IMG/VR virus record: IMGVR_UViG_3300017613_000561
Span: 1 to 64,000 of that record
DNA length: 64,000 nucleotides
Reading direction: 5' to 3' (one strand)
From: a virus
Shown: positions 3,623-60,298 of the stretch, piece by piece
How positions within the stretch are numbered: the stretch's first letter is position 1
How the letters are laid out: the number at the start of each line of letters is the position of its first letter
Translations under genes and position numbers: made by a program
The notes under the pieces: generated by a model
Seen by the model: the letters and a program-made list of their open reading frames with translations, nothing else
The model's database searches: none
Told to the model about the DNA's origin: nothing

Positions 3623-4331
3623 GAAAGAACAGCTAGATAAGTACCTGGATGCCTGTGCTCAGCCACAGTCCAACTATGCCATTGAGCATCTGATTGATGG
3701 AGCCCAGCTGACCCCTGAGAGGCGGTTCCGGCAGGCGGTGATAGAACTGAACTCTGCGGAGAACGCACTTAGGAGCTTGGAGCAGGACTTTGCAGAGGCC
3801 AACTTGGATCTGGAGGCCACAGAACACAAGGCCAGATTAATTGGGTATGCAGCATGGCTGTCCACAGCATTCAAAATGGTGGATTTGGCTATCAGGCATC
3901 AACAGAATGCACTTAAGTTCAAAAGAATAAAGGTAGAGCGGCTGTCCAGGTCTTTGTTGGGTCGTCAACGAGAAATGGAAGCGCACTTGAAAGCCCTAGT
4001 AAAATACCAGGAAGAACTGGGGTTTACAGAAGATACTCCTGCCGAGGCAATATATGAGAGGTTGCAAGCAGCTGAGGGGAGGCACTATGCTACTAAGCTA
4101 TCCTTGGATGCAGCGGCACAGATAGTAGCTGCCCGGGGTGGGCCACATATGGGGGTGTTACTGGCTATGCAGCAGTTGCCACCGGAGGATATAGGTAGAG
4201 TGACTGGGTTGGTGGAGAAATTACTTAAGGCCCTGAGTAATAATGAACATGTTCCTGGTCTGCATGACCGGGAGGACTTTTTTAAATTGTTGGCGGGTGA
4301 CACCGCTAAACTGGAAAACAAAGACTCTTAG
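3609..4331 (+). CDS. coiled-coil protein, possible tail-fibre chaperone
   Basis: helical/coiled-coil composition; overlaps end of the fibre gene. Confidence 0.45.
   Translation: MPTLKKEQLDKYLDACAQPQSNYAIEHLIDGAQLTPERRFRQAVIELNSAENALRSLEQDFAEANLDLEATEHKARLIGYAAWLSTAFKMVDLAIRHQQNALKFKRIKVERLSRSLLGRQREMEAHLKALVKYQEELGFTEDTPAEAIYERLQAAEGRHYATKLSLDAAAQIVAARGGPHMGVLLAMQQLPPEDIGRVTGLVEKLLKALSNNEHVPGLHDREDFFKLLAGDTAKLENKDS
3909..3920. repeat. palindrome family, variant GCACTTAAGTTC
   Basis: 1 mismatch; T/A flanks. Confidence 0.6.
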
Positions 4332-4353
4332 AGTCCTACCGTGAGGCAATGCC

Positions 4354-4815
4354 ATGGCAACAACAACTTGTGATTTTGATTATTACGAAAACTTCTATAA
4401 GCACCAAGGCGCAGGCCACATAGAGCTAGATGCAGGCTCTTTCGGTATGCTCTTATGCACATCCACCTATACCCCGGATTTGGATGCCGATGAGTTTGTT
4501 GATGATCTTACCAACGAAGTTACAGGCAACGGGTACGCTAGAAAAATTCTTACAGGTGTTACGTACACAGAGGTTGGACCCAACGGTAAATATAAATTTG
4601 ATTCGGTAGATCCAGTATGGACCGCATCAGGAGGGTCGATTACCGCGCACTATTGGGTACTCTATTATGAAACTCCGGGTTCAGACGCTACTAGACATCT
4701 TATTGCTGTTGGCCTTCTTGATGTTACTGCTGGGGGAACTGATGTGGTAACCGCTGATGGGGAAACCCTCACCTTCCAGGTCAATGCAGATGGGCACTTC
4801 ACCGTAGGCGGTTAA
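4354..4815 (+). CDS. virion structural protein (tail-associated)
   Basis: EVTGNGYARK..L, FDSVDPVWTASGGSI pattern typical of small phage tail proteins; GAGG RBS. Confidence 0.65.
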   Translation: MATTTCDFDYYENFYKHQGAGHIELDAGSFGMLLCTSTYTPDLDADEFVDDLTNEVTGNGYARKILTGVTYTEVGPNGKYKFDSVDPVWTASGGSITAHYWVLYYETPGSDATRHLIAVGLLDVTAGGTDVVTADGETLTFQVNADGHFTVGG

Positions 4816-4816
4816 T

Positions 4817-5470
4817 ATGGCTACTGAAGCTAATTTTGTTAATACTACGACCAACTCTACTACCAGCATAGCGGCTACCACTGTAGTTGTGGTTGCAGCA
4901 TCATCTCCGTTTAATTCCCCCATAGATCCGAGTGGGGATACGGCTACGTTGATATTGCTGGATGATCCAGATACTCCGACTAAGTTAGAGATCATTACCT
5001 ATACCGGTAGGACAGGGGCAGGCCCGTACACGCTTACGGGAGTAACGAAAGGCGTGGATGGTACTTCGGATCAATCTTGGGCATCAGGTAGTCATGTTAT
5101 TCAAACTCCTACTGCTGCTTTAATTGCGTCATTGTATAAGAATGGGGGAGTACTTACTTCTTACGGGGAGACAGAAGTAGCTAAAGGTTCTGTATCAGGA
5201 GCACAGACGTTTAACACCGCTAATGGCAACATGTTTTCCCTTACCGCTACGGGAGCTATTACCCTTACCTTTACCAATGCCTTCGACACTACGGGGTTCA
5301 CTGTAATTGTTACGAACGCGGGAACGAATCTTACCTTCCCTGCATCCGTAGAGTGGGCGGGAGGTACAGCACCTACCCTGACGACTACGGGGGTGGATAT
5401 ACTTTCGTTTATAACCAATGATGGAGGCACTACTTGGTATGGATTCTTGGGGGGGGCTGACTTCTCATGA
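4817..5470 (+). CDS. tail fibre-related protein
   Basis: EIITYTG...GVTKGVDGT anchor and FPASVEWAGGTAPTLT..GVDILSF C-terminal motif. Confidence 0.65.
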   Translation: MATEANFVNTTTNSTTSIAATTVVVVAASSPFNSPIDPSGDTATLILLDDPDTPTKLEIITYTGRTGAGPYTLTGVTKGVDGTSDQSWASGSHVIQTPTAALIASLYKNGGVLTSYGETEVAKGSVSGAQTFNTANGNMFSLTATGAITLTFTNAFDTTGFTVIVTNAGTNLTFPASVEWAGGTAPTLTTTGVDILSFITNDGGTTWYGFLGGADFS

Positions 5471-11626: not shown

Positions 11627-14600
11627 ATGTCTTTCCGTTCTTTTGGGTTATCACCGTATGGACTGCCCAAAGGAGTGCAGGGAACTGCTACCGACCACTC
11701 AGGGCAGAAAGCCCCCCGTCCGTATGGTCTATCCCCTTACGGGTTAGCCAAAAACCCCATATCTATCGTTACTGGTAACATTGCCACAGGCGTTGCTGGG
11801 CACTTCTCGTTTACAGGTAAGGCTTCTGAGGTATCCACCCCAACCACTGCCCAAGGCGTAGCAGGTCATCTTGCCTTAACAGGCAACGCTTCAGAAGCAG
11901 GTATACCTAATATAGCAGCAGGGGTGGCAGGGCATCTTACGCTTACAGGTAAAGTAGCTACTGCCAAAATAGACAACATTGCATTAGGTGTTGCAGGACA
12001 TCTTGACTTTACCGGCAATGCTTCAAAAACCACAGGGTCAAATACTGTTGAAGGTGTCGCAGGGCATTTAACTCTCACAGGAAAAGCAGCACAAGTCAAT
12101 ACACCTACCACCAGTTTAGGTGTAGCTGGGCATCTGTCTTTAACGGGGAAAGATGCTACCGCTAAGACTATTCCTTACCACTGGGCGCAGGGGGTTGCTG
12201 GGCATTTATCCTTAACTGGGAAAACTGCTACTGCCAAGATAGACAATATTGCTCAAGGTGTATCTGGGCATTTGAGTCTCACCGGTAATGCTTCGATAAC
12301 CACCCAGAAAGATACTGCTCTGGGTGTAGCAGGCCACCTGCCGTTCCTTAAGAAGTTCGGTAAGGTAGATAACGGGATCACGGTAACTACGGAGATTAAA
12401 GAAGGTCCGATAGATTATACCGATGATGTACTGGTAGACATCACCCCTGTAGTTTCTGAGTATGTAACCACCGGGATACCTATAGGTTATAACGTAACCG
12501 GCATATATGGTGCGGGTAGCTCCGGGATCAACGGTACGACATTAAACACTGGTCCTATAAACCAGCCTGGAGTTAATTACCCAGGACCGGACATTCAGGC
12601 CAATCTGAACTTTAGCTGGTCTCAGGGAGCAGTTCTGGTTGGGGGTATGACCTTTAAGTACGTCCTGATGGACGATGCTGAATATGGTCATGGAGAGCTG
12701 AACCATAAGTATGGGCAGGGCACACCAGAACCGGTGGTGTATAGTTCTGATCTGAATATGGTGTGGGAGCTTGATGCATATGTAGCCACTGCTCAGATTA
12801 ATGAGTTAAATTTCAGATTAGCCCATACTGGTGTTGACTATTACGCAGATTGTTTAAGTGAGATAAATGCTTTAAGGGTAGCAGAGGATCTGCCCCCGTT
12901 ATTACGCTACTCAAATGTTTCAGGTATCCCAGGATCAGATATTGCTTGGGATATGTCACATCAAATGGCTAAGCACAGTATTTTTGCCACAGAGAGCCCA
13001 TCCTTTGATGAAGGCTTTAGGACCCTGGAGGATTACAGTAACATGGTACCAGAAGGGGTGTGGAAGATAGGTGCTCTGGCAGCAGTTTGGGCTATGGATT
13101 CCATACCAACCCCAGCAGATTTAGTTGCATGGTTTGCAGCACAGCCTACATCATTGGAATATATGCTGGATGACTACAAGGAAGATAACAGCCCAGACCC
13201 CAGCAATAAATACGAACATTTTTGGATAGGCATTGAGTATAATTGGGAAAACGCTAGTCTGGATGGACCTACAGGCAATCCGGCTGGTACCAAGTATGCC
13301 TACATCACCTTTATATTTGGCGGAGTACTACAGGCGGGAGCAGACGGTATGCAAGAGATATCCTTAAACAACAAATACCAGATGGCGGCATACTCTGTAA
13401 GCACTCTGAGTAATAAGTATGAGCAGGATGCTTATACGGAGGTTCTGGTACAACATGATTCACCGTATGGGCTCAGGGTGGCAAATCAACATGAGGCTCC
13501 TTTTGGCTCTAGGGCTACCCAGCAGCATGTTGCTCCTATCACTTACAGGGTAGCAAGGCAGTTGGATGCCCCTTACGGGGAAATGGTACGTGTGATTACC
13601 CAGCATGACTCTAAATATGCTATCCAGCAGTACAACTTTGTAACCACAGACCATGCGGCCCTTTGGAGTATAGGTAATGTAGTGGTTCAGCACAACGCCC
13701 CTTATGTGGGACTAGGCCGAGTGCAAGTGCAGCACTTAAGTGCATACACTGCCACAGATACGGTAGTGAAGCAGCATGATGCTCCATATAGGATAGATGA
13801 CTTTAATAGGGTGCTTTCGGACCTGACCAGTATTTGGAGCATGATGTCGGATACTGATTATGCTGCAGCTCCGATCAGAAAGCTTATCCATAATGGGGTG
13901 GAGATAGAAATAGACTCCCTCACACTGTCCAGTTCTGAGAGCGGTGTAGCGTGGGAGTTTGAAGCTGCCCTTGTGGATGTAAAGGACTACAAGACTATTA
14001 CCAGAAGGGACACCATCATAGTGCAGCTGGCTGCAGACCAGTACACCATGGTTGTGGAGAGTAAGGAGTTGAATAGATCAGATCCAGCAGAAGTAACCAT
14101 GAGGCTGCGTGGAGCCAGTCCTATTGTTCTGAAGGCCCCACCGCATGCACAGACGATAACCAAATCGTACACCTCCATTATGTCTGCCAAGGCCATTGTG
14201 GAGGATCTCCTTGGTGAATCAGTAACGTGGGGCATTGTAGACTGGTTTATTCCTGCATATCGCATGGCGGTGTCCAACGGGTCGGCAATTACGGCTGCCC
14301 AGCGGGTTGTAGAGGCCGTAGGTGGTGTTATTGAGTCGAACTTGAACGGAACGATCAATATACGGCCGAAGTACCCTGTGACGGTTCCAGACTTCAGTAC
14401 TGCTACCCCTGACATGGTTTTGACGGACATAGATGACAATTTGTCAGTATCTGAAGGATTCCATATGGTAGAGAGTTATAATGTCTACCGGGTGAAGGAT
14501 GGGGACTCTGTATACCAGGATAAGCTGGAGCATGTTCCTGATCCAGATAACAAGTTTGCTCCCTGTACTATCAGGTGTTACCCGACCCCATGGAGGACGA

Positions 14601-14920
14601 ATGTAACCCTGAAGCATACCTGGGATTCTCGTATATCTCTGGCCTACGTTGGTGAAGTTACTCGGGTAGTGGAAGAAGAGCTGGTAGAATTCGTAGCAGG
14701 TGTTGGTAATTTGAAGTACCCTGCTACAAGTATCACGCTGGTAGATTGGGAGTCTTTGGCATTGACCGGGCTGACTTTCGACCCGTACACCAGCAAGGTG
14801 ACCACAAGTAACCCAGAGGATTATGGTTTGGCTAAGATAACGTACCAGACGAAATCTATAGATTACACAGCCACTCAGCCTGCAGACACTGATGCTCAGT
14901 TTGTGTTGGAGGATGCATAA
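11627..14920 (+). CDS. mosaic tail protein (GVAGHL repeats, CAP-like segment, QHxAPY repeats, hub/baseplate-like C-terminus)
   Basis: 1097 aa; internal repeats visible in translation; GAGG RBS. Confidence 0.6.
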   Translation: MSFRSFGLSPYGLPKGVQGTATDHSGQKAPRPYGLSPYGLAKNPISIVTGNIATGVAGHFSFTGKASEVSTPTTAQGVAGHLALTGNASEAGIPNIAAGVAGHLTLTGKVATAKIDNIALGVAGHLDFTGNASKTTGSNTVEGVAGHLTLTGKAAQVNTPTTSLGVAGHLSLTGKDATAKTIPYHWAQGVAGHLSLTGKTATAKIDNIAQGVSGHLSLTGNASITTQKDTALGVAGHLPFLKKFGKVDNGITVTTEIKEGPIDYTDDVLVDITPVVSEYVTTGIPIGYNVTGIYGAGSSGINGTTLNTGPINQPGVNYPGPDIQANLNFSWSQGAVLVGGMTFKYVLMDDAEYGHGELNHKYGQGTPEPVVYSSDLNMVWELDAYVATAQINELNFRLAHTGVDYYADCLSEINALRVAEDLPPLLRYSNVSGIPGSDIAWDMSHQMAKHSIFATESPSFDEGFRTLEDYSNMVPEGVWKIGALAAVWAMDSIPTPADLVAWFAAQPTSLEYMLDDYKEDNSPDPSNKYEHFWIGIEYNWENASLDGPTGNPAGTKYAYITFIFGGVLQAGADGMQEISLNNKYQMAAYSVSTLSNKYEQDAYTEVLVQHDSPYGLRVANQHEAPFGSRATQQHVAPITYRVARQLDAPYGEMVRVITQHDSKYAIQQYNFVTTDHAALWSIGNVVVQHNAPYVGLGRVQVQHLSAYTATDTVVKQHDAPYRIDDFNRVLSDLTSIWSMMSDTDYAAAPIRKLIHNGVEIEIDSLTLSSSESGVAWEFEAALVDVKDYKTITRRDTIIVQLAADQYTMVVESKELNRSDPAEVTMRLRGASPIVLKAPPHAQTITKSYTSIMSAKAIVEDLLGESVTWGIVDWFIPAYRMAVSNGSAITAAQRVVEAVGGVIESNLNGTINIRPKYPVTVPDFSTATPDMVLTDIDDNLSVSEGFHMVESYNVYRVKDGDSVYQDKLEHVPDPDNKFAPCTIRCYPTPWRTNVTLKHTWDSRISLAYVGEVTRVVEEELVEFVAGVGNLKYPATSITLVDWESLALTGLTFDPYTSKVTTSNPEDYGLAKITYQTKSIDYTATQPADTDAQFVLEDA
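11780..12350 (+). repeat. nine ~22-aa coding repeats (A.GVAGHL.LTG.A)
   Basis: directly visible in translation of 11627..14920; boundaries approximate. Confidence 0.85.
13732..13743. repeat. palindrome GCACTTAAGTGC
   Basis: exact copy inside CDS. Confidence 0.9.
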
Positions 14921-25545: not shown

Positions 25546-25562
25546 TGCCTATTTAGTCTTAT

Positions 25563-25574
25563 GCACTTAAGTGC
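25563..25574. repeat. palindrome GCACTTAAGTGC
   Basis: exact copy after lysis module. Confidence 0.9.
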
Positions 25575-25934
25575 CGAACTAAGTATTCTATTGACCTATA
25601 TCAATACTTAGTCCGAAGCCTTTTAAAGATTTATAAAGTTTGACAAACGTATTCTGTCCTCGCTCTGTTCGGGGAAGTACTTACAGGGATACACAGCACT
25701 CTATAAAGACCCACATAGAATATAAAAGGTCTTTTTAAACGCTTCTAACGGGACTTAGAAGACCCACCCTTATACTCATATTCCCTTTTTAAATTTGTGT
25801 TCTAACGCCATATCCTGTCCAACACGATACAAGATATCTTTTTGACCCTACCTACCCCCTTACTATAGAATCTTAAGAAGACACACAAGCTTAAAACAGG
25901 TCTAACGGATTCCCGACTCTTTCCTTGTATTTAT

Positions 25935-25963
25935 TTGACAAACGCTATTCCATTTGTTAGGAT
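25935..25963 (+). promoter_or_regulatory. sigma70-type promoter (TTTGACAAAC family)
   Basis: TTGACA-17-TAGGAT with extended -10 TG. Confidence 0.75.
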
Positions 25964-25994
25964 AAGAACATAAAAATTAATCGAGGATCACGCA

Positions 25995-31968: not shown

Positions 31969-31987
31969 GATCAAAAGCTAGGAGCAG

Positions 31988-32691: not shown

Positions 32692-32703
32692 GCACTTGAG
32701 TGC
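32692..32703. repeat. palindrome family, variant GCACTTGAGTGC
   Basis: intergenic; T/A flanks. Confidence 0.8.
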
Positions 32704-35139: not shown

Positions 35140-35165
35140 GTGTGCCCCCTGTTATGGGGGCGCAC
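35140..35165 (+). terminator. hairpin after SSB gene
   Basis: gtgtgccccc-tgttat-gggggcgcac; overlaps a palindrome site. Confidence 0.5.
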
Positions 35166-35173
35166 TTAAGTGC
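35162..35173. repeat. palindrome GCACTTAAGTGC
   Basis: exact intergenic copy. Confidence 0.9.
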
Positions 35174-38990: not shown

Positions 38991-39928
38991 TGAAATTTGC
39001 TAAGAAGCTGTCGGAGCATATGCCCAAGGAAGGGCTTAAGCTCCATATACATCGGTTGCTGGCTGGGTGGGACAAGCCTAGACCAGTAACGCATATTCAT
39101 GCCAGTGATTTGACCAAGATGGATAAGAACACGGAGTATTGTCCCCGGGAGTTTGCACTTCTCCAACTCACAGGGTACAAGGCCAAGGACAGGTTCATAG
39201 GTACCAGTTTACAATACACTTTTGATATGGGCAGGCTATTAGAGCACCAGATGCAAAATGTGTATGCCAAAGATATAGCCATAGGTGAATGGTTATGTTT
39301 CCACTGCAGTAAGAAGACTTCTTTTGGGAGCCATCCCGGTACTTGTACGGTGTGTAACCGTAAGGATTGGAACTATATTGAGCCCAGATTTATGTCCCAA
39401 TATTGTGGTGCGAGTGGCGGTATAGATTTGTTGGTAAAACTAAAGGGGGAGAAAAAGTTACGGTTGGTAGAAGTGAAGAGCATAGACAAGGATATGTATA
39501 AGCAGTTGGTAGCTCCATTAGCTGAACATACGCTAAGAACCAATCTGTACCTGCGGCTGGTAGAGGAGAGTAACTCCCCGTTCAAAGATATGGTGAACAC
39601 CAAGGAAGGAATGGTGTTTTACATGTGTAAAGGTTTTGGGACTCAAGATAATAGTCTGACTGATTTTGCTGTAACAGATGCTGGGTTCAGCCCGTTTAAG
39701 GAGTTCTTTGTTGGGCGCAATGATTCGGACACAGATGCGTTGGTAGAGCTGTCCCGGCAGTTGTTTGCCTGGAGAAATAAAGCGGCCGGTGTACCGCCCC
39801 CGATATGCTCCCATGGTATGTGTCCCCGGGCTAAAAAGTGCAAGGTAGCTAAGGTGTGTTGGTCTGGAGAATATCCTCCAGGGGCCAAAATATATCTGGA
39901 GGATAAAAATGAAAGTACTGGGGCTTGA
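38990..39928 (+). CDS. PD-(D/E)xK exonuclease (Cas4/AddB-like, Cys-rich)
   Basis: HASD...CPR, G..D...EVKS, C-terminal C..C..C cluster. Confidence 0.7.
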   Translation: MKFAKKLSEHMPKEGLKLHIHRLLAGWDKPRPVTHIHASDLTKMDKNTEYCPREFALLQLTGYKAKDRFIGTSLQYTFDMGRLLEHQMQNVYAKDIAIGEWLCFHCSKKTSFGSHPGTCTVCNRKDWNYIEPRFMSQYCGASGGIDLLVKLKGEKKLRLVEVKSIDKDMYKQLVAPLAEHTLRTNLYLRLVEESNSPFKDMVNTKEGMVFYMCKGFGTQDNSLTDFAVTDAGFSPFKEFFVGRNDSDTDALVELSRQLFAWRNKAAGVPPPICSHGMCPRAKKCKVAKVCWSGEYPPGAKIYLEDKNESTGA

Positions 39929-40460
39929 TACCTCCACCAAAACTGGGGCAGTAGTTGTTGATTTCTTTGGGCATGATGGCCCTATAACAAATGGGTTTAA
40001 AATCTTGTTTGCTGAGGAGTTGGAGCATAAGAAGCTAAAGGATTTGGAACGCTGCGCTGCTTTAGCTGGGGATGTGATTGAGATTATGGAAACGCATACC
40101 CCTGATCTGGCTGTGATTGAAGGCTACGGGTATGGGAACGCAAATACGCTGGTTACCTTGGTGGAGATAGGTACTATCATCAGGTACTTTCTGAAACAGT
40201 ACCAGCTGCCCTATGTAGTGGTGGCCCCAACCACACTAAAGAAGTTTGTGACGGGTAAGGGTAATGCCACTAAAGATCAGATGATGCTGCAGGTTTACAA
40301 GCGTTGGAGGTACGAGGCAGACACCAACAATATTGCAGATGCAGTGGGCCTTGCTATGACAGGAGGTGCGTTGTATGGGCACTTAGACATGCCCAAGCAG
40401 AACATGGAGGCTTTAAAACCACTGCGTAGAGAACTACCTTCACTATCCCTCAGCACTTAA
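39909..40460 (+). CDS. ruvC: RuvC-like Holliday junction resolvase
   Basis: VLGLDTS, VIEG, PTTLKKFVTGKGNATK, NIADA. Confidence 0.88.
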   Translation: MKVLGLDTSTKTGAVVVDFFGHDGPITNGFKILFAEELEHKKLKDLERCAALAGDVIEIMETHTPDLAVIEGYGYGNANTLVTLVEIGTIIRYFLKQYQLPYVVVAPTTLKKFVTGKGNATKDQMMLQVYKRWRYEADTNNIADAVGLAMTGGALYGHLDMPKQNMEALKPLRRELPSLSLST

Positions 40461-40488
40461 GTGCAAAACTAATTAAGAACTTAAGTGC
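40453..40488. repeat. tandem pair GCACTTAAGTGC (40453) and GAACTTAAGTGC (40477)
   Basis: ACTTAAGTGCAAAACTA directly repeated with a 24-bp period. Confidence 0.9.
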
Positions 40489-40496: not shown

Positions 40497-40525
40497 TTGA
40501 CAAACGCAGTTAGCTATGTCATAGT
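40497..40525 (+). promoter_or_regulatory. sigma70-type promoter (TTTGACAAAC family)
   Basis: TTGACA-17-CATAGT with extended -10 TG; preceded by two palindrome sites. Confidence 0.7.
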
Positions 40526-40571: not shown

Positions 40572-41441
40572 ATGATGGCTGAGTCACCCACAATGAAAGT
40601 CCTGACTAAAGGACAGAAGGACGGGAATAAAGCAACTGCAAAGACCACCAAGGCCCCCGCTAAGAAGGCTGTGAAAACCACCAAGTCCAAGGTCAAGACC
40701 GGTGAGGTGGTGGGTAAAGATCTGATTCTGGACACAGTACAAGAGTTGGAGAACATGAACCAAGCGGCCACCCTTAAAGGTGTCAGGGCTTGTTTGGAAA
40801 CAGCTGGTTATAGTAATTTCCAGTTGGGTGGGCTATTGCAGCGCATCCAGGAAGAAGGCTGGTGGGATAACGGAGAGCATGAATCCTTCAAGGACTTTAT
40901 TCAGGCGGAGTATGGTTTGGGCCTGCGTAAAGCTGCTTACCTCATGGCGATATATACCGGGCTGGTTGAATCCGGTGTCAAGTGGGAGCAGGTTCAGGCT
41001 CTGGGTTGGACCAAGCTGCGTGAACTGGTCTCTATGCTGACTGTAGATAATGTTGATGAATGGGTGGAGAAGGCCAAGGAGATGACCACTCTGCAGTTGA
41101 TCGAATACATCAAGGCAGAGAAGGCACAGGGTAAGGGTGATAAAGATGCACCTACCAAGGAAGAGGCACAGAAGATCAAGACCAAGACCTTCAAGCTCCA
41201 TGCTGACCAGCTGGAGACCGTAGACACAGCACTTGAACGGGCTCGGGAAGAGGGTGAGACGGAGTATGACACGGTAGCACTTGATTACATCTGCATGCGG
41301 TACCTCAGTAATGATGCAGGTAAGGCCAAGACGACTAAGCCGCCTACTTTGGAGAAGCAGTTCAAAGAAGCCGGTGTTGATAAGGTGCTGGAAGCCTTTG
41401 AAGAGGCGTTTCCAGAGTGCAACATCACGGTAGCTATGTAA
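40572..41441 (+). CDS. putative DNA-binding protein (K/A/T-rich N-tail plus HTH-like core)
   Basis: KATAKTTKAPAKKAVKTTKSK; SFKDFIQAEYGLGLRKAAYLM resembles DUF3102/ParB-type HTH. Confidence 0.55.
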   Translation: MMAESPTMKVLTKGQKDGNKATAKTTKAPAKKAVKTTKSKVKTGEVVGKDLILDTVQELENMNQAATLKGVRACLETAGYSNFQLGGLLQRIQEEGWWDNGEHESFKDFIQAEYGLGLRKAAYLMAIYTGLVESGVKWEQVQALGWTKLRELVSMLTVDNVDEWVEKAKEMTTLQLIEYIKAEKAQGKGDKDAPTKEEAQKIKTKTFKLHADQLETVDTALERAREEGETEYDTVALDYICMRYLSNDAGKAKTTKPPTLEKQFKEAGVDKVLEAFEEAFPECNITVAM

Positions 41442-42948: not shown

Positions 42949-44109
42949 ATGAAGCAGCTAGTAATATCAATGACAGATCCAAGTAAGAAGTATGAGGTGG
43001 ACCTGGAGAAGGAAACCTGTAATTGTCCAGCCTATGCTAAGGGTAAGACTCGCCCCTGTAAGCATCTGGTTGAGCTGGGAGTTAAGCCAAAAAAGAAGAA
43101 GGTAGTCACCAGCTATGTGAAGTCAGCTATCCAGAAGGCCTACCGTAGGAATGATCAGCCATTGTTAATCTGGAGCTTTAACTGGCTCTGGAAGAATGAG
43201 CGTAACTGGATCTGGTGGAGATACATGGTGCTACCAGCAGAAGACCACTGGAAGGGTGTGGTGGAGATGGGCAGGGCTCATGATGAAGCTAAGATGGTCT
43301 ATAAGCATGATCCTGTGGGGGCCAAGCATTTATTGCTATGTGGGTTGTTGAACACGATGGCTCAGAAGAAGAGTCAGGATTCTAACGGGATTCGCCAGTT
43401 AGCTGATGTAGTCAGATCTACTAGCCAGGTTAAGACCCCGCACTTGATGGGGGCCATTATTAAGAAAGTAGATGTATCCCAGATGTTGTTCTTTGAGTTT
43501 TACCGCAGTATTTCTGACCCAGTAGCCGTTGATGCTAAGGGTCTGATATCCCCCATTGTTTGGGAGACTATCTGGCATAAGGTAGCTGAACTGAAAGAGT
43601 CGGGTATTAGTCTGGGGAAGTACGTAGATCTGTGTGATGGGATCAAGGCTATGCAGTACCGCGCAGCCATGGGGGGAGGCCCAGGATACACCACTCTGTT
43701 TCTGGCAGTAATTGCCCTCCAACTCTACTACACAGAGCTGGGACGATCTATTACAGGGGAGCCTAGTGATGAGGTTCTGTCTTCTGGGGAATGGATTACC
43801 CCGCATGTAACCCCGCCGTGGTGCTGCTTGGATATGCATACAGGGCCTGGGAAGAGAGTGTTGGGCTACATCACCAAGATTGTCAGTAACACGCATATGG
43901 ATGGTGCCGAATGTAAGGCAGCAGTAGAAGAGATTTGGTTCATAAATGAAACCGCGCTGGTGAACGAAACCGATGAAGACAGTGTTTGGTGGAAGCTGGG
44001 ATGTAACGCCTATCTGATCCAGCACGGAGTAAAGCCAAAAGAGATGAAGAAACTTTGGGACGAGAAGTTGAGAGATATCGTCCGTAAGAAGATCATATTG
44101 TGGAGCTAG
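42949..44109 (+). CDS. SWIM zinc finger plus RarA/MgsA C-terminal-like domain protein
   Basis: CNCP...CKH SWIM; KSAIQKAYRR...WRYMVLPAED...LDMHT. Confidence 0.55.
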   Translation: MKQLVISMTDPSKKYEVDLEKETCNCPAYAKGKTRPCKHLVELGVKPKKKKVVTSYVKSAIQKAYRRNDQPLLIWSFNWLWKNERNWIWWRYMVLPAEDHWKGVVEMGRAHDEAKMVYKHDPVGAKHLLLCGLLNTMAQKKSQDSNGIRQLADVVRSTSQVKTPHLMGAIIKKVDVSQMLFFEFYRSISDPVAVDAKGLISPIVWETIWHKVAELKESGISLGKYVDLCDGIKAMQYRAAMGGGPGYTTLFLAVIALQLYYTELGRSITGEPSDEVLSSGEWITPHVTPPWCCLDMHTGPGKRVLGYITKIVSNTHMDGAECKAAVEEIWFINETALVNETDEDSVWWKLGCNAYLIQHGVKPKEMKKLWDEKLRDIVRKKIILWS

Positions 44110-44110
44110 T

Positions 44111-44122
44111 GCACTCAAGTGC
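44111..44122. repeat. palindrome family, variant GCACTCAAGTGC
   Basis: immediately after a stop codon. Confidence 0.8.
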
Positions 44123-46293: not shown

Positions 46294-46913
46294 CTCCGCA
46301 AGAATACGTCAGCAAGGTCATAACTTTTTCAGATAGGGCCTCATGGGAGATGGAAGTGCTCAGTGTTTTAGACTGGGCCAATGTCTGTGGGGTCTATGCT
46401 TTGGACTATGGTAGTGGTTCTGGAAAGCTATGCTCTATCCTGAAGCGGCACTATGACTTTCAGTATGTTTGTGGTGTTGACATAAACACTGGGTTGTTGG
46501 CATATGCCAGGAAGACATACCCAGCCTTTACGTTTACGAACCCCATAGCCTTGCTTAGCAGCCCAATGACCTATGATATGGTGACCATGTTTCATGTGTT
46601 GGGGCGTGTACCTAATCCAATAACCACTTTGCAGATGATCAGGAATGTTTTGGTCGATAGGGGTAGGTTGTTGATAGTGATTCCCAATAAGGTGTATGAC
46701 ACCCTGATGGTACCGTACAATACGGTTACGGGTTATAAGGGTGATCCTACTATTTGTCACAGCTGGACACGAAGAGAAGCCATGAAGCTATTGCGAGCTT
46801 GTGGGTTTATTGACCTGGAGTACACCTATTTTGGTGAGCCAGTTAAGGGGTTTCCAGATATCCCCTGTCTTAGGTCACGCATAGCTATTCATGGGGTTGT
46901 GGATGAGCGTTGA
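46290..46913 (+). CDS. class I SAM-dependent methyltransferase
   Basis: LDYGSGSG motif I, GVDIN, YDMVTMFHVL, GRLLIVIPN. Confidence 0.88.
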   Translation: MTPQEYVSKVITFSDRASWEMEVLSVLDWANVCGVYALDYGSGSGKLCSILKRHYDFQYVCGVDINTGLLAYARKTYPAFTFTNPIALLSSPMTYDMVTMFHVLGRVPNPITTLQMIRNVLVDRGRLLIVIPNKVYDTLMVPYNTVTGYKGDPTICHSWTRREAMKLLRACGFIDLEYTYFGEPVKGFPDIPCLRSRIAIHGVVDER

Positions 46914-47931
46914 AGGTAAGGTAGTGTTAGTCACAGGGGCAGGTGGGTCTATAGGAACCCGTCTGGTTAATGAGCTGTTGAATAACCCTAAGCCAAAGAG
47001 CCTTATACTTGTAGACCTGTGTGAGTACAATTTGTATCAGGTACAGCGAGTAGTCGAAGAATCCGGCGTAGCACTTAAGTGCAAGTACCTGTTGGCAGAC
47101 ATCCGGCACCGACATCTGATGGACTGTGTGTTTAGAGCAGAGGCCCCAGATGTGGTGTTTCACGCGGCAGCTCTGAAGCATGTTCCAATGTTGGAGACTC
47201 CGCATAATACGTTGGAGGCCATACGTACAAATATCCTGGGGACTAAGAATGTGCTGGACATGTCTGTGAGGTATGGAGCAGAACAGTTCCTACTGATATC
47301 GACAGATAAGGCCGTGAACCCTGTGTCCATGATGGGGGCCACCAAGACCTTTGCTGAGGGCTATGTGCGGGAGGCAGCTACATCAGTCAGCCTGAATGTG
47401 TCCATAGTGCGCTTCGGTAATGTTCTTGGTAGTTCCGGGTCAGTAGTGCCTCTGTTTGCTCGTCAGGTTGCTGAGGGCGGGCCTGTAACCGTAACGCATC
47501 CAGATATCATTAGGTATTTCATGTCTATAGATGATGCTGTGCGTTTAGTAGTTGAATCCGCACACCTGACGATAGCTTCGCATAAGACCTCATGCACTTA
47601 CGTGCTGAACATGGGAGATCCTGTGAAGATAGATGACTTGGCTAAGAAAATGATCTGGGAGTCGGGTAAGGATATAGCCATAAAGTACATAGGGCTCAGA
47701 GCCGGTGAGAAGATGGAGGAGGAGCTGCATTATGCTAATGAGTTCCTGGTACCGACAAGTCGTAAGAATATCAATATAGTACGGCAGAGCGACCACCTTA
47801 GAAGGGGGTTTGTTCGCGTAGCCAATGAGCTTGTTACCTTGTGTGATGAACGTGAGTTGCCTGATGCCTTTGTTGCCATTAAAGAAAAAGTTCCGTATCA
47901 AGGAGATACGATATTATGCGAGAGTTTGTAG
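46903..47931 (+). CDS. UDP-HexNAc 4,6-dehydratase (PglF/WbpM/CapD catalytic domain, soluble)
   Basis: VTGAGGSIG, HAAALKHVP, STDKAVNP..MGATK, VRFGNVLGSSGSVVP, RYFM, GEKMEEEL. Confidence 0.93.
   Translation: MSVEGKVVLVTGAGGSIGTRLVNELLNNPKPKSLILVDLCEYNLYQVQRVVEESGVALKCKYLLADIRHRHLMDCVFRAEAPDVVFHAAALKHVPMLETPHNTLEAIRTNILGTKNVLDMSVRYGAEQFLLISTDKAVNPVSMMGATKTFAEGYVREAATSVSLNVSIVRFGNVLGSSGSVVPLFARQVAEGGPVTVTHPDIIRYFMSIDDAVRLVVESAHLTIASHKTSCTYVLNMGDPVKIDDLAKKMIWESGKDIAIKYIGLRAGEKMEEELHYANEFLVPTSRKNINIVRQSDHLRRGFVRVANELVTLCDERELPDAFVAIKEKVPYQGDTILCESL
47071..47082. repeat. palindrome GCACTTAAGTGC
   Basis: exact copy inside dehydratase CDS. Confidence 0.9.
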
Positions 47932-48587
47932 TAACACATCACCAGCCTAGTTTCCTGCCTTGGGTTGGGTATTGGAACAAGATGGCAGTATGTACGCATT
48001 GGTCTTATTTGGTTGGTGTGGGCTTTGCAAAGAGGGATTACCAGAATAGGGTCGCCCTTAATGGTAGTTGGCTTACCGTTCCTGTAAGAGCTGGATTGAA
48101 CGAAAAAATACAAGATGTTTGTATTGCCGGTAAGTACAAGCACAAGATTGCGACCACGATCAAGCAGAACCTCATGAACAAGAAGATGCCCTACGGTCAC
48201 AGGCTGGAAGAGCTGGTGCATATCTTGGAGACAATAGAGCCTAAGTACTTGTATGAGCTATGCATGTCCATGGACGCTATGATTGTCGCTAGTTTGGGAC
48301 TTGAGAAAACGTACAGTTTGAGTGGTGCAGGTAATGTAGCTGGGGACACAAAGACCAAGGGTTTGTCCAGACGGTTAGCCAGTGAGTTCCCCCCGAATGT
48401 TGACACGTACCTGTTGGGGGCAGGAACCTCCTCGTATTTCGTAAAGGAGGAGTTCCAGTACGACTGTAAGTTGATGGTCCAGAAGATTGCTGGTTGGGCG
48501 GAGAAGGACACAATTCTGAAAGTCCTGGCTACTGTTAACGACCCGTTGTCCTATGTGATGGAAGCTGCTACGTGGGAGGAGCTATGA
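47916..48587 (+). CDS. WbqC-like protein (putative aminoacyl/glycyl transferase)
   Basis: HQPSFLPWVGYWNK, QNR, WLTVPV, YLLGAG. Confidence 0.85.
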   Translation: MREFVVTHHQPSFLPWVGYWNKMAVCTHWSYLVGVGFAKRDYQNRVALNGSWLTVPVRAGLNEKIQDVCIAGKYKHKIATTIKQNLMNKKMPYGHRLEELVHILETIEPKYLYELCMSMDAMIVASLGLEKTYSLSGAGNVAGDTKTKGLSRRLASEFPPNVDTYLLGAGTSSYFVKEEFQYDCKLMVQKIAGWAEKDTILKVLATVNDPLSYVMEAATWEEL

Positions 48588-49252
48588 AGAGCATATTGGT
48601 AATAGCACCGCATCCTGATGATGCAGAGTATGGTGTTGGTGGATACATAGCTAAGTGTGCGGGCGTAGCTAATGTGACCATAGCTACCATGTATGCTGGA
48701 GATTATCCCACGTATACTACGCACGTATTGGGGGAGGACCGTAAGAGCGAATCCCTTCAGGCAGCTAAAGTGCTGCACACCAGGATAATACATCTTGATG
48801 TGTGCAAGGATAATGACTACATGAACTACCTGGGGGAGCTTTGTCTAGCTGTAGATATGATGCTGGACAAGATAAGACCCGATGTCCTGTTTATTCCACT
48901 GCCCTCGTATAACCAGGATCATCAGGCGGTATACACAGCATGTATGGCTGCTACAAGGCCGGTAAAGGAGATACTGCCTCAGAAGATATATGCCTACGAG
49001 TACCCTATGCAGAATTGGGGGGCTGGAGCGGAGCAGCATGCCATCATGGGACGGACGTACATTCCGTTGAGTAACCATGACATGGACAAGAAGTTAGAAG
49101 CCCTGAGGTGTTACAAGTCCCAGTTAAGAAAAGATGAAGTGAACTTAAGTGCACTGGGCGGAGTAACTGCCTTGGCTCGCCTAAGAGGAGCAGAGTGTAG
49201 ACAGGTGTACGCTGAGTTGGTGTACCTCATAAAGAACAAGACGGAGATCTGA
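48584..49252 (+). CDS. PIG-L/LmbE family N-deacetylase
   Basis: ILVIAPHPDDAEYG, R..E, NQDH, KLEALRCYKSQ. Confidence 0.9.
   Translation: MKSILVIAPHPDDAEYGVGGYIAKCAGVANVTIATMYAGDYPTYTTHVLGEDRKSESLQAAKVLHTRIIHLDVCKDNDYMNYLGELCLAVDMMLDKIRPDVLFIPLPSYNQDHQAVYTACMAATRPVKEILPQKIYAYEYPMQNWGAGAEQHAIMGRTYIPLSNHDMDKKLEALRCYKSQLRKDEVNLSALGGVTALARLRGAECRQVYAELVYLIKNKTEI
49141..49152. repeat. palindrome family, variant GAACTTAAGTGC
   Basis: 1 mismatch; inside PIG-L CDS. Confidence 0.6.
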
Positions 49253-50746
49253 ATGTCCACTAAGATTTTGATTGATTCGATATACTCAGCAAGGCCCAGT
49301 CACTGCGCCTCGGCCGTTAAGATGTGGCGGTTCGTAGATTACGTACTGAATACGCAAGGTAGAACGGATGTATTTTTTTATTGGCTAATCCCAGAATGGT
49401 TGGAGGAGGAAGACCTAGCCTTCTACCCGGAACACGACAACGTAGTTTACCTTCAGTTTCCGTATCACCGGGGAGACAGGACCCGAGCGTATCTGGCATT
49501 CCCGGCAGAGTTGGATAGGCTGTTGGCCTTCAATGGGGTGGCCTGGGATTTCGATATTGTAATGACGAACCGAACAACTCAAGTACCCTTGATGAAGATG
49601 GTGATGTCCAGTCCAAGAGAGCCAACGAAGACATGGATGAAGAACGTCTTCCTGTTTGAGGAAATGCCCCTCATGGCCTTTAAGTCCACAGTAGCCATAT
49701 CGAATGTGCCGGTAACGGAGCGCATGACCATAGCGGGGCATCTAGCCGCAGACAGGACCGCTATAACGATCTCTCACGAAAGGGATGGTCTGATATCGGG
49801 GGCCAAGAGATATGTGCCTCCGTCCTCGGTCATGGAGCTGAGGGACAAGATTAAGGTAACAAGCCCGTCTTTGCTGGAAGATTTTGAGGAGAAAGATAAG
49901 AAGTACCGGTTTACCAAGGGGGAAGAGAAGTTTTGCCTAGCCTTCGTAGGTAGGGTGTCTGCTACAGATCATATCAGGGAAGTGTATGACACCATGGTTA
50001 AGCATTGGATCACGAAGGGAGATGACCGTATCAAATTGATAGTCTCCACTGTAACCCCCGTGTATAAGATTGAGCCGCCTGAAATGGTGGAGTACATAAA
50101 CTTGCCCAGAGATGAATTTTGGGAGGCGCTGAAAACAGAGATGCACTGCATTATGTACTTGGCTGAGGAGGCTGGGTTTGGCATGTCCCTAATGGAGCCC
50201 CTGATGTTTGGGGTACCAGTAGTGTTGATCAGAGCCCCGTGGTCAGAGGCTTTGGTAGGCAAGGATTACCCGCTGTTCATAGACACGGAGTCAAAGGCCT
50301 ATGGGATGGTGAAGGCTATCCATGATGACTACGAGGAGTATTACCGGCAGTTTATCCAGTGGCAACATGATGTACTGCAGCCTATGTTTCAGGAAGGTGG
50401 GCAGTATTCGCAGTCATTCTATGACTATATGTACAAGGGCCTGTTGGAGTTTGAAGAGATGTTGCCTGCCAGATATGCAGCAGAGCAGGCCAGTAAGCAG
50501 AATAACAACATAGTCCAGGCACTGCTAGACGGAGACCCTGAAGAGTTTGTTTTGTTTGATCGTATACGGGAGCTGGGTAAGAAAGGAGATCTCAAGTCCT
50601 TGCAGTCCAAGACCCGAGAGGGGGACAGGGACCGTAGGGGCCTAGTATGGTCAACGCCATGGAACGATATACGGATAGCCCTGAAGACATTCTTTGGGTA
50701 TGAGGACGCCAGTGTAACTGTTGGACATTTGAGGAAGGTAAAATGA
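49253..50746 (+). CDS. GT-B fold (GT4-like) glycosyltransferase with C-terminal extension
   Basis: LAFVGR; EAGFGMSLMEPLMFGVPVV nucleotide-sugar binding motif. Confidence 0.75.
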   Translation: MSTKILIDSIYSARPSHCASAVKMWRFVDYVLNTQGRTDVFFYWLIPEWLEEEDLAFYPEHDNVVYLQFPYHRGDRTRAYLAFPAELDRLLAFNGVAWDFDIVMTNRTTQVPLMKMVMSSPREPTKTWMKNVFLFEEMPLMAFKSTVAISNVPVTERMTIAGHLAADRTAITISHERDGLISGAKRYVPPSSVMELRDKIKVTSPSLLEDFEEKDKKYRFTKGEEKFCLAFVGRVSATDHIREVYDTMVKHWITKGDDRIKLIVSTVTPVYKIEPPEMVEYINLPRDEFWEALKTEMHCIMYLAEEAGFGMSLMEPLMFGVPVVLIRAPWSEALVGKDYPLFIDTESKAYGMVKAIHDDYEEYYRQFIQWQHDVLQPMFQEGGQYSQSFYDYMYKGLLEFEEMLPARYAAEQASKQNNNIVQALLDGDPEEFVLFDRIRELGKKGDLKSLQSKTREGDRDRRGLVWSTPWNDIRIALKTFFGYEDASVTVGHLRKVK

Positions 50747-51582
50747 GCACTGCGTATGATAAGACCAAGAATCATGAACGTATCTGGTTGCCGATACACC
50801 AGTTGGAGCCTAACCCAGATAACCCGAACAAGATGAGCCCCCGGGCCTTTGACTTGTTGGTAGACAACATAGAAAGCAAGGGCATGACTGAGGACATTGA
50901 GGTGCGGCGTATTGGTAAGGACCAGTACCGCATCATTGGTGGTCATCATAGGTGGGGAGCCTGCGAGTACTTGGGCTGGAAGGAAGTACCCTGTATTGTA
51001 AATACTGACCCAGATATGACTGACGAAGTGGAGAATTTCCAGGTAGTCAGGATGAACATGATCCATGGTAAGTTGGACCCAACCAAGTTCATGGCTATGT
51101 ATCAGAAGGTGTCAGAAAAGTACTCTGATGAGATACTGGCTGAGTCCTTTGGTTTTGCTGACGAAGCGGAGTTTGCTAAGTTGATCAAGCAGACAGCCAA
51201 CACGCTTCCCCCAGAGTTGAAGTCAAAGTTTAAGGAGGCAGCTGCGGAGATAAAGACAGTAGAAGATTTAGCCACAGTGCTGAATGAATTGTTGTTCACG
51301 TATGGAAACACTGTAGCCTATGGATACATGATCTTTGATTTCAACGGTAAGGAGTCTGTGTGGGTCAGGATGAACCCCAAGGATAAGGTTGCTGCTATGA
51401 AAGTAGGAGACCTGTGTAGGGCTAACTCCAGGATGATGGACTCAGTAGTGTCTGCTCTGTTTCAGCTAACCCAGGAGGAGGGTGATTTGGGGGATTCAGT
51501 ACGAGCCCATTTGTTAGATGTAACCCACCCAGAAGAAATTGATTTGTCTGCTACATGGCCGACACAGGATCAGTTGAATTGA
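50743..51582 (+). CDS. ParB/Srx N-terminal domain protein
   Basis: LEPNPDNPN, IEVR, YRIIGGHHRW, RMNMIHG. Confidence 0.85.
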   Translation: MSTAYDKTKNHERIWLPIHQLEPNPDNPNKMSPRAFDLLVDNIESKGMTEDIEVRRIGKDQYRIIGGHHRWGACEYLGWKEVPCIVNTDPDMTDEVENFQVVRMNMIHGKLDPTKFMAMYQKVSEKYSDEILAESFGFADEAEFAKLIKQTANTLPPELKSKFKEAAAEIKTVEDLATVLNELLFTYGNTVAYGYMIFDFNGKESVWVRMNPKDKVAAMKVGDLCRANSRMMDSVVSALFQLTQEEGDLGDSVRAHLLDVTHPEEIDLSATWPTQDQLN

Positions 51583-54184: not shown

Positions 54185-54196
54185 GCACTCAAGTGC
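54185..54196. repeat. palindrome family, variant GCACTCAAGTGC
   Basis: immediately after terL stop. Confidence 0.8.
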
Positions 54197-56191: not shown

Positions 56192-56365
56192 ATGTATAAG
56201 CATAGCACTAGAGTAATCTTATCAGGTCCCTTCAGCGCAGGTAGGGTGTATGCCCCTAATGGAGACAACTGGCGAGCTGTATGTTCGGACGGGAATGTAC
56301 CGGCTGACGATGCCGTTTCACTGATCGGATCTGATAAGGTTATTTGGATGGTAGAAAGCACTTAA
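56192..56365 (+). CDS. 57-aa hypothetical protein; not in ORF track
   Basis: AGGAG RBS; stop codon lies inside a palindrome site. Confidence 0.45.
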   Translation: MYKHSTRVILSGPFSAGRVYAPNGDNWRAVCSDGNVPADDAVSLIGSDKVIWMVEST

Positions 56366-56369
56366 GTGC
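56358..56369. repeat. palindrome GCACTTAAGTGC
   Basis: exact copy; supplies a TAA stop. Confidence 0.9.
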
Positions 56370-57621: not shown

Positions 57622-57884
57622 CGCAAGAAGTAAGCAGTGATGGATAAGAAAGAAAGTAAAGAAGGCTGTTAAGCATGTAGATCCCCCTAAGGGTTCAGGT
57701 TGGGGAACCACGTTTGATATGAAAGAGGCTATGGCTAAGGGGTATATCGGGGAGGTAGTCGTGATGCCCAGGAAAATAGTGAATGTCTACCGTACCTTAC
57801 GAGGACGAAAGACTATTGGTCCGGCGACCATGTTTTACTACGGGGAGATAGATGACTATCTCAGGGACAAGTTTCAGATAGTGA

Positions 57885-57896
57885 GCACTTAAGTGC
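57885..57896. repeat. palindrome GCACTTAAGTGC
   Basis: exact copy; supplies a TAA stop. Confidence 0.9.
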
Positions 57897-58764: not shown

Positions 58765-58785
58765 AAGTTATGAGGAGAAGGTGTA

Positions 58786-58944: not shown

Positions 58945-58959
58945 GCTAGGAGCGGGATC

Positions 58960-59289: not shown

Positions 59290-59474
59290 TGGGCGTACCG
59301 ACAGAAAAGATCAGGAACAGGTTGGCAGACATAGAGTATGCCCTCAGGTACCTGGAGACCTCAGCCAACACGTATGTACTGACAGAGGAGCAGTTTGAGT
59401 ATATGGAGGCCTTGGGCAATCGTATACATGCAGTAGTGCGACAGGTACGGGCATCCAGGGGGGGCCATGATTAG
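59289..59474 (+). CDS. hypothetical protein
   Basis: coupled ORF. Confidence 0.45.
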   Translation: MGVPTEKIRNRLADIEYALRYLETSANTYVLTEEQFEYMEALGNRIHAVVRQVRASRGGHD

Positions 59475-59611
59475 GAACTGGGTAGCGTCCATCTACAGGG
59501 GTGGGTTCTCATACAGGAGACCCCTGAGGAACATGACATATGACTACGCCTGTAGTGTGATGCGGTGCTGCCCCCCTGGATACATCTGGATAATAGTACC
59601 GGAGGAAGAAG

Positions 59612-59818
59612 ATGAGCGAAGAAACCATAGAACTTGATTTGGAGTATGTGAACCAGACAGATGAGGCGTATCTGGTAAAAGACGCTGACGATAAAAAGCA
59701 TTGGTTGCCTAAGTCCGTGGTTGAGGTGGAGGATGCCATAAACATGGATCTGGACAAGGGAGAGGGCTACATGTTTCTGATGCCCGGGTGGTTGGCCTGG
59801 AAAGAAGGGTTGATATGA
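59612..59818 (+). CDS. small phage protein
   Basis: TDEAYLV...WLPKS...MPGWLAWKEGL motif. Confidence 0.6.
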   Translation: MSEETIELDLEYVNQTDEAYLVKDADDKKHWLPKSVVEVEDAINMDLDKGEGYMFLMPGWLAWKEGLI

Positions 59819-60024
59819 GCACTAAAGGTGACAGCCATCAGCTTGACGACTACACATCTTTTTTGATGCCCATAATGGTTAAGGAAGGACGCATGCATAT
59901 GTGGCACAGCATCTGTAGTATACATAGAAGCCATGTTGATACCTGCCCTGTATGCAAGACCGGATTCTGGGCCGAGATAGTGTACCCAGAAGAAAAAACA
60001 AGTGTTGGTGAACATGAACCCTGA
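59815..60024 (+). CDS. hypothetical Zn-finger-like protein
   Basis: CSIH...CPVC. Confidence 0.45.
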   Translation: MSTKGDSHQLDDYTSFLMPIMVKEGRMHMWHSICSIHRSHVDTCPVCKTGFWAEIVYPEEKTSVGEHEP

Positions 60025-60298
60025 AAAGTTACTGCGGGTCTGTGCCTCATGTGAATGGGTGTTTAAGACAGGCTCGGTGGAGTGCCCCATGTGTGGGTTC
60101 GGATCGTATGGTGCCCACTATGTATATGGGCGCAAGGCTTATAAGTATGCCCACACTCAGAAACCTTGGCGCGACAATAAGATGTTTAAATACAGCATGC
60201 ACTTAAGTGCAGAGATAAGGAGAGCGTTAGATGAGCAAAAAACGAAAGAAAGAACCGCCAGTGCAGGAGTACAAGGAGCGGTACATTTGTCGTTGTAA
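60014..60298 (+). CDS. Zn-ribbon hypothetical protein
   Basis: CASC...CPMC. Confidence 0.5.
   Translation: MNPEKLLRVCASCEWVFKTGSVECPMCGFGSYGAHYVYGRKAYKYAHTQKPWRDNKMFKYSMHLSAEIRRALDEQKTKERTASAGVQGAVHLSL
60199..60210. repeat. palindrome GCACTTAAGTGC
   Basis: exact copy inside CDS. Confidence 0.9.

Follow-up and report, generated by a model that had tools for sequence, protein, structure and literature searches.

This text concerns the first 64,000 nucleotides (hereafter the window) of the IMG/VR virus record IMGVR_UViG_3300017613_000561, a phage record of 92,447 bp that is rated complete and was also scanned as a whole. All genes of this phage lie on the + strand, and dispersed among them are copies of a palindromic 12-mer, GCACTTAAGTGC, for which the product of the gene 40572..41441 is the best candidate reader (Table 1). 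The window holds nine exact and nine one-mismatch copies, 18 sites at no more than one mismatch, compared with 0.17 expected from dinucleotide shuffles (0 of 100 reached 18). The whole genome has 15 exact, 10 one-mismatch and 2 two-mismatch copies, and as copy number falls to background at two mismatches, the motif is sharply specified. The site is a perfect palindrome of 12–14 bp in this phage, and within one genome its inner six bases are conserved as strongly as the outer ones. A first-pass annotation, made from the letters of the window, had listed 17 of the sites, with every coordinate and sequence correct and one further variant, at 47594, missing. Its account of the flanks (mostly a 3' A, many a 5' T) was roughly right, with the A present at 18 and the T at 13 of the 25 genome sites, and the scarcity that it reported over 1–25 kb is real, with just 3909 and 13732 there.

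The array is genuine and selected at the DNA level. Called open reading frames (ORFs) contain 6 exact and 8 one-mismatch copies, against means of 0.20 and 1.35 in synonymous-codon shuffles that keep the proteins, and therefore codon choice is used to spell the palindrome inside genes; a codon-aware null model, named at first pass as a possible refutation, thus leaves the excess standing. About nine of the 25 sites are well inside genes. Ten of the 25 end 11–21 nt before the next start codon, directly 5' of the Shine-Dalgarno sequence, where about 0.4 would be expected by chance (134 genes x an 11-nt window over 92 kb). Sites at gene ends, likewise claimed at first pass, were confirmed: three genes, RuvC (39909..40460), 56192..56365 and 57719..57892, use the central TAA of a palindrome as their stop codon (at 40458-40460, 56363-56365 and 57890-57892, respectively), and other copies adjoin the stops at 44109 and 54183. 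In larger gaps, five sites stand just upstream of -35-like boxes (25563, the 40453/40477 doublet, and 79447/79519 beyond the window).

Table 1. Copies of the palindrome in the window, with the candidate reader gene, its promoter and the gene of a rival reader.
Feature	Position	Strand	Context
Site, one mismatch (GCACTTAAGTTC)	3909..3920		within ORF 3609..4331
Exact site	13732..13743		within 1097-aa ORF 11627..14920
Exact site	25563..25574		450-bp gap 25546..25994, 16 nt upstream of TTGACC box
Site, one mismatch	28631..28642		within replication-initiator-like gene 28374..29339
Exact site	29315..29326		final codons of 28374..29339, 17 nt before ATG 29343
Site, one mismatch	30659..30670		within DnaB-like helicase gene 30293..31567
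Site, one mismatch	32692..32703		gap after 31988..32686, 11 nt before start 32714
Exact site	35162..35173		gap after 34417..35130, 12 nt before ATG 35185 of ResIII helicase
Exact site, distal copy of sole doublet	40453..40464		TAA is RuvC stop; centred about -73.5 of 40572..41441 promoter
Site, one mismatch (GAACTTAAGTGC), proximal doublet copy	40477..40488		14-mer ends 7 bp before -35, centre about -49.5
Sigma-70-like promoter of candidate reader gene	40497..40525	+	TTGACA-17-CATAGT, TG before -10
Candidate reader gene (phrog_17202, 289 aa)	40572..41441	+	Arg after GWTKL encoded at 41019-41021
Site, one mismatch	44111..44122		directly 3' of 42949..44109 stop, 14 nt before ATG 44136
Exact site	47071..47082		within ORF 46891..47931
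Site, one mismatch (GCACTTACGTGC)	47594..47605		within 46891..47931; extra to first list
Site, one mismatch	49141..49152		within ORF 48572..49252
ParB_N-domain protein gene (rival reader)	50743..51582	+	upstream of putative small and large terminase genes
Site, one mismatch	54185..54196		one base past TerL stop (54183), 12 nt before ATG 54208
Exact site	56358..56369		TAA is stop of 56192..56365; 14 nt before GTG 56383
Exact site	57885..57896		TAA is stop of 57719..57892; 11 nt before ATG 57907
Exact site	60199..60210		21 nt before ATG 60231

Related phages and their own palindromes

The closest relative (L121) is WTBY01000015.1, an 88,179-bp contig binned in a Helicobacteraceae metagenome-assembled genome (MAG), whose homologue of the candidate reader is 58% identical. 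Its palindrome is identical to that of this phage, and 17 of the 18 copies in the 3.0-Mb MAG are on that contig; in three further MAGs, all copies of the local variant are on a phage-like contig. The palindrome is not a HIP1-like repeat spread genome-wide through the host. The binning of L121 hints at a Campylobacterota host for this lineage, MAG binning being the sole basis of the phage-host link.

As judged from sequence, the array architecture is shared across a broad clade of phages, 80-110 kb in size, whose host bacteria are very diverse. A search with the product of 40572..41441 gave 58 GenBank phage records (Vibrio, Stenotrophomonas, Rhodobacter, Rhizobium, Pseudomonas and Aeromonas phages), including Vibrio phages SIO-2, VHS1 and V-YDF132, Stenotrophomonas phages DLP3 and DLP5, Rhodobacter phage RcZahn, Pseudomonas phages SM1 and PaMx31, Aeromonas phage HJ05, and Rhizobium phages. 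V-YDF132 is syntenic with this phage and has TGCAATTAATTGCA in 25 exact copies; this palindrome differs from the one here by a symmetric change at positions 5 and 10 only. A (T)GCA-N6-TGC(A) dyad is dispersed through each of the relatives fetched, with a centre specific to the phage, the dominant form being TGCAATCAATTGCA in DLP5, TGCACTTAATTGCA in SIO-2 (a hybrid of two half-sites), TGCAATCAA(C/T)TGCA in RcZahn, TGCAACATATTGCA in TM16, TGCAACAGGTTGCA in L338C, TGCAACCGGTTGCA in HJ05, TGCAAACGCTTGCA in SM1 and GCAATTAATTGC in VP-RY-9 (14 copies). TGCA-N6-TGCA occurs 33 times in V-YDF132, 38 in DLP5, 28 in RcZahn, 18 in TM16, 9 in SIO-2, 48 in L338C, 18 in HJ05 and 30 in SM1 (~1.3 expected), and the enrichment of the dyad is confined to the 6-bp spacing. 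Around homologues of the gene at 61 IMG/VR loci, 317 copies of TGCA-N6-TGCA were counted where 15 are expected; most of these loci carry the dyad, and further variants among them are TGACATTAATGTCA, TGAACTTAAGTTCA and GGCAA-type half-sites. The spacing of sites is more even than chance in V-YDF132 (coefficient of variation, CV, 0.40), DLP5 (0.52) and RcZahn (0.61), and its evenness is non-significant in the present genome (CV 0.80, P = 0.20).

This comparative evidence supports the core of the first-pass reading, an array for a phage-encoded dimeric binder that is neither a protein motif nor a host repeat: the copies are confined to phage contigs, the dyad is dispersed, with phage-specific centres, in every named relative fetched, and a conserved candidate reader, described below, is predicted to dimerise and has one residue that covaries with one motif base. 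A megablast of 8 kb against GenBank phages returned zero near-identical phages, a TerL-based scan of IMG/VR for such phages returned one fragment, and a description of the palindrome array in this clade was not found in literature searches. One intragenic site is conserved in position in the homologous gene of DLP5 (65549), RcZahn (97710) and TM16 (72121), in the context ...LGSGxCN..CNDAAE..., with central bases that follow each phage's own variant. Contig C4 of genome G002 (a Hyphomicrobium MAG, 309 kb) has separate clusters of TGCAATTAATTGCA at 113-170 kb and 229-264 kb; two related phages, integrated or in tandem, could account for them, as could a mis-join.

The placement of the sites raises the question of whether they act as RNA, with every site transcribed and a short hairpin 5' of the Shine-Dalgarno sequence controlling translation, processing or stability. 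The pre-start placement described above recurs in DLP5, RcZahn and TM16, pairing is preserved where C-G in this phage is replaced by A-U in V-YDF132, and the predicted hairpins have energies of -4.2 to -6.9 kcal/mol. However, the stems are just 4-6 bp, and in SIO-2 and RcZahn the dominant sites join two different half-sites at the cost of one pair, with the SIO-2 form at -2.6 kcal/mol. Many sites have a terminator on one side and a -35 box on the other, which places them ahead of the transcription start for the next unit, and the sites deep inside genes, about a third, also speak against an RNA role, while intergenic DNA sites would abut the Shine-Dalgarno sequence simply because gaps between genes are short. 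Half-sites vary independently (e.g. TGCACTTAATTGCA in SIO-2, TGCAATCAACTGCA in RcZahn), which fits two protein subunits better than a hairpin. With the covariation set out below, which links the motif to a residue of a DNA-binding-like domain, we consider an RNA element very unlikely.

Another possibility is that the motif marks a covalent event on DNA, such as a nick, a modification or glycosylation target, or a recombination or restriction-type site. The pattern GCA-N6-TGC is, as we take it, the outer pattern of the type IIB restriction site AlfI, and the phage presumably encodes an amino-sugar pathway and a glycosyltransferase, as labelled in the first-pass annotation. The inner six bases of the motif show no less conservation than the outer, unlike those of bipartite restriction sites, and phages normally avoid restriction targets rather than enrich them. 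Moreover, in SIO-2 and VP-RY-9 the interval between the reader gene and TerL has three ORFs and zero detected sugar-pathway homologues, and the motif is kept. Motif-associated nicks are known in other phages, e.g. at WACTRTGAC in tf-like Pseudomonas phages (PMC11780129), although the nick motifs of other phages are asymmetric and one-stranded (PMC11780129), whereas this motif is palindromic. A covalent role is therefore the least probable of the readings considered here, and we regard it as highly improbable.

Three further functions were considered and rejected. A phage-specific promoter does not suit a palindromic motif in a genome with genes on one strand, in which the motif lies upstream of sigma-70-type boxes; an intrinsic terminator would need a T tract, which is missing 3' of the motif; and a polar function is contradicted by the orientation bias of asymmetric centres, which is inconsistent between phages, the central asymmetry being biased oppositely in DLP5 (CA) and HJ05 (TG) and unbiased in SM1 (11:10).

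The product of 40572..41441 as candidate reader

The gene 40572..41441 is present in 10/10 clade genomes examined, and is one of ~12 core genes found in 9/9 named relatives. The AlphaFold model of its product (mean pLDDT 79.5) consists of a disordered basic N-terminal tail, a helical domain (~residues 60-190) and a C-terminal helical domain. In an exhaustive structural search with VIA-align, residues ~60-190 matched ParB-parS with Z 8.0 (root-mean-square deviation 3.7, 116 aligned) and other ParB-type DNA-binding domains with Z 7.5 (Spo0J), 6.9 (KorB-operator) and 4.4-4.5 (SopB and P1 ParB), the alignments extending over most of each domain. In Foldseek, Noc and ParB were weak matches (E-values >=0.24), the ESM Atlas gave weak leads only, including one cluster named DUF1016/ParB HTH at 0.84, and a profile of the protein had zero matches among PDB sequences. 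A ParB_N domain for binding cytidine triphosphate (CTP), with its GERRxR motif, was not found with Pfam, the N-terminus being the disordered basic tail. The protein is predicted to homodimerise: the homodimer model reached an ipSAE of 0.60, compared with 0.31 for the best control, a mark reached by 20/30 solved homodimers and by 1/23 proteins solved as single chains, and the runs agree in >=93% of contacts with a partner pLDDT >=77.

The link between protein and palindrome comes from covariation. Motif position 5 is A in most relatives (TGCAA) and C in this phage (TGCAC). In an alignment of 71 homologues, of which 62 belong to relatives scored as not C-dominant at position 5, the residue after an invariant GWTKL is Lys in 58 of those 62, and is Arg in exactly four rows (this phage, L099, L110 and L068), all four of which have C at position 5. 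Fisher's test gives p = 6.5e-6 for this column, against 0.0066 for the second-best column of the protein and 1.6e-4 to 3e-3 for the best columns of six neighbouring core proteins in the same scan. A quick maximum-likelihood tree scatters the four Arg rows, with 4 separate changes to Arg, and L121 likewise pairs Arg with C. A putative contact of the Arg to the G of the C:G pair is chemically sensible. The palindrome also tends to accompany the gene, since 46/78 loci have a site 380-900 nt upstream of the codon of the GWTK motif, where ~24% would be expected. Taken together, we infer that the product of 40572..41441 binds the palindrome, and it is the best candidate for its reader.

Several points weigh against this assignment. 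As ~12 core genes are common to all relatives, co-occurrence alone cannot single out 40572..41441. Just two independent Arg/C pairs lie on well-supported branches, and a sign test is therefore without power; the covarying column was also spotted by eye ahead of the scan of all columns. The Lys-bearing L079 has mostly C at position 5, and two remote Arg-bearing homologues from bacterial chromosomes are exceptions (L130 with an A-type motif, L129 with no visible motif). For an all-helical domain the fold scores are moderate, the Rubisco factor Raf1 scores equally high, and a structural-search Z below ~8-13 can reflect a common helical arrangement; the ParB/KorB fold is therefore a lead, and not family membership. 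A Pfam family match was not found for the protein or any of 39 homologues (E up to 1). Finally, the regulatory role may differ between phages, because promoter-proximal sites, which are common in V-YDF132, occur here at the reader's promoter only.

The other candidate named in the first-pass annotation alongside 40572..41441, the ParB_N-domain protein 50743..51582, would act in the manner of KorB, loading as a clamp at the palindromes and then spreading or sliding. It is a true ParB/Noc relative (Pfam ParB_N 1e-11, 45 bits; phrog_26387), with a phmmer match to Noc of 7e-11 over residues 7-142, and the even spacing of sites in relatives would suit clamp-loading. KorB operators are palindromes of like size, found 4-10 bp or far upstream of promoters (PMC11790492). 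In Pseudomonas phage SM1 (NC_041877.1, 44202-46666), two ParB_N genes lie directly 3' of the 40572..41441 homologue, an adjacency that suggests a functional link between ParB_N proteins and the candidate reader type. However, neither a profile search nor tblastn found ParB_N in SIO-2 or VP-RY-9, which keep their palindromes, and 50743..51582 is disfavoured as reader because of this absence from two motif-keeping relatives. Homologues of it were found by tblastn in 5/9 relatives only. Aligned with Noc, it reads GHHRWG where the CTP-binding GERRxR (GERRWRA in ParB/Noc) is expected, so CTP may not be bound, and a ParA partner (PF13614, PF01656) was not found in the 92-kb genome, with controls matched in 14/14 genomes. 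That 50743..51582 is the reader is thus distinctly unlikely, and between the two candidates of the first pass the one present in all ten genomes is favoured. The specific analogies drawn at first pass are not established, as the ParA partner is missing and the favoured reader is without the ParB CTPase domain, and coating, transcription blocking or guidance of modification or packaging, also proposed there, are conjectural.

The palindrome could instead be read by a different dimeric protein: the phage MerR-like protein 36508..36963, the small core protein 36947..37261 or a conserved host factor. Co-occurrence is unable to separate core genes, and 36947..37261 is likewise universal among relatives. 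The SM1 variant TGCAAACGCTTGCA resembles, as we take it, operators of the LacI/PurR family. On the other side, even phages with related hosts differ in the motif centre, which stays constant within each genome, and such phage-specific, genome-uniform centres argue for a reader that the phage encodes and that co-evolves with the motif. The MerR-like protein was found in 4/9 relatives only, and none of the columns of 36947..37261 tracks the motif change as the residue next to GWTKL does. We therefore consider another dimeric reader unlikely.

Promoters, probable autoregulation and a possible role

The genome has ~20 copies of a strong promoter family, consisting of aaataacaTTTGACAAACg, then ~12 nt, then TAtAGTTA. 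In the window these are at 25639, 25934, 27621, 31760, 34342, 40496, 42630, 42885, 54389, 54462, 55013, 55854, 58203 and 62885, with further copies beyond 64 kb. Palindromes are found at just one of the ~20, the promoter of 40572..41441, where a site is 7-8 bp upstream of the -35 box in this phage (40477), in DLP5 and in RcZahn, and ~9 bp upstream of the box in V-YDF132. In V-YDF132, ~12 sites immediately precede early promoters, and often a terminator lies on the side away from the -35 box. The promoter family has its own version in relatives, e.g. TTTGACAAAAC in V-YDF132, and the combination of genes on one strand with a shared strong promoter family raises the question of temporal control.

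The reading that we hold with slightly better than even confidence is that the palindromes are docking sites for a homodimer of the 40572..41441 product. The protein would combine a basic disordered tail, a ParB/KorB-type helix-turn-helix without CTPase domain, and a C-terminal dimerisation domain, and one subunit of the dimer would occupy each (T)GCAC half-site, the TGCA blocks lying one helical turn apart. At its own promoter, the dimer would sit on the doublet, with the proximal copy 7 bp before the -35 box, and probably autoregulate. At the other ~23 sites, it would bind at gene boundaries or within genes, ten of these sites occupying the short space from a stop codon to the following Shine-Dalgarno sequence. 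Such dispersed sites would most plausibly serve a genome-wide regulator or roadblock, or be nucleation points that organise the phage chromosome. The choice between regulation and organisation is the least certain step of the proposal, in which the basic character of the tail and the evenly spaced sites of relatives speak for an organising component. If the docking reading is true, a large and widespread clade that includes cultured phages runs a plasmid-style, genome-wide DNA-docking network; the unannotated family phrog_17202, which has no Pfam family, gains a function; and the codon choice spent on the palindrome inside genes is accounted for. It also predicts that Lys or Arg after GWTKL sets A or C, respectively, at motif position 5.

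A more specific version of this proposal, which we put forward tentatively and as doubtful, is that a ParB-fold protein that lost the CTPase clamp and acquired a histone-like basic tail nucleates at evenly spaced palindromes and coats or folds the chromosome. If so, it would serve as the phage's own nucleoid organiser, marking phage DNA as self, and would be conserved in a large siphovirus clade of alpha- and gammaproteobacteria and probably Campylobacterota. Its uses might include transcription timing, shielding from host defences, and preparing DNA for packaging.

Comparison with known systems

The nearest known systems are the KorB operators, OB, of the IncP plasmid RK2, whose positions 4-10 bp upstream of promoters or at a distance (PMC11790492) were mentioned above, and the Cluster O repeat treated below, with stoperators and Noc-NBS as looser parallels. 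In both systems, one palindrome of like size is dispersed over a mobile genome of like size, with some copies near promoters (here 7-8 bp, in this phage, DLP5 and RcZahn) and others, the majority here, far off, and the candidate reader would share with KorB a ParB-type helix-turn-helix, to judge from its moderate fold match, and is predicted to dimerise. Unlike KorB, the favoured reader is without the ParB_N CTPase domain, and so alone cannot be a CTP-gated sliding clamp; a KorA-like partner was not identified, the element hosting the sites is a tailed phage, and there are ~25-48 sites, many within genes. With the CTPase feature and ParA missing, the array would be a KorB-type operator network in its working, and not a member of that family. 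ParB-parS and Noc-NBS likewise have 14-16-bp palindromes and a reader with a ParB-type helix-turn-helix (here a putative one), the palindromes being dispersed in the case of Noc. They differ from the present array, in which ParA is missing, the favoured reader again has no CTPase domain, and a membrane-targeting or partition function is not indicated; because ParA is missing, it is not a classical parS partition system.

Among phages, Cluster O mycobacteriophages (Corndog) carry a 17-bp repeat, TGTTCGGNNNCCGAACA, in >30 dyad-symmetric copies genome-wide, for which the authors predicted a dimeric binder and whose function was unexplained in the 2015 paper (PMC4351075). As in the present array, the Cluster O sites are between genes, near gene starts and inside genes, their central asymmetry has no strict orientation, and integrase and a parAB system are absent. 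The lineage and motif are unrelated (7-3-7 in Cluster O, 5-4-5 here), and a reader is named here with covariation support, whereas none was proposed there. The stoperators of Cluster A phages are asymmetric, oriented with transcription and bound by the immunity repressor of a temperate phage (L5 gp71) (PMC4351075). They resemble the present sites in being many copies of a short site in short gaps between genes, plus operator copies at a promoter, and differ from them in that the sites here are palindromic and not oriented with transcription. An integrase or repressor module was not found in this phage, a search of the genome for tyrosine integrase being negative, and the relatives DLP3 and DLP5 are reported as temperate (PMC7326821).

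Some minor features of the genome may also be recorded. An extended ribosome-binding context, aGCTAGGAGc, is common to many genes and lies upstream of starts at 31834-31988, 42949, 54532, 55929, 58273 and 58960, with AGCTAGGAGC occurring 7 times. A peptide deformylase is encoded at 27206-27625 of the window (Pfam 5e-37), and beyond the window, at genome positions 68271-68645, there is a protein with a CsrA-like segment (3e-7).

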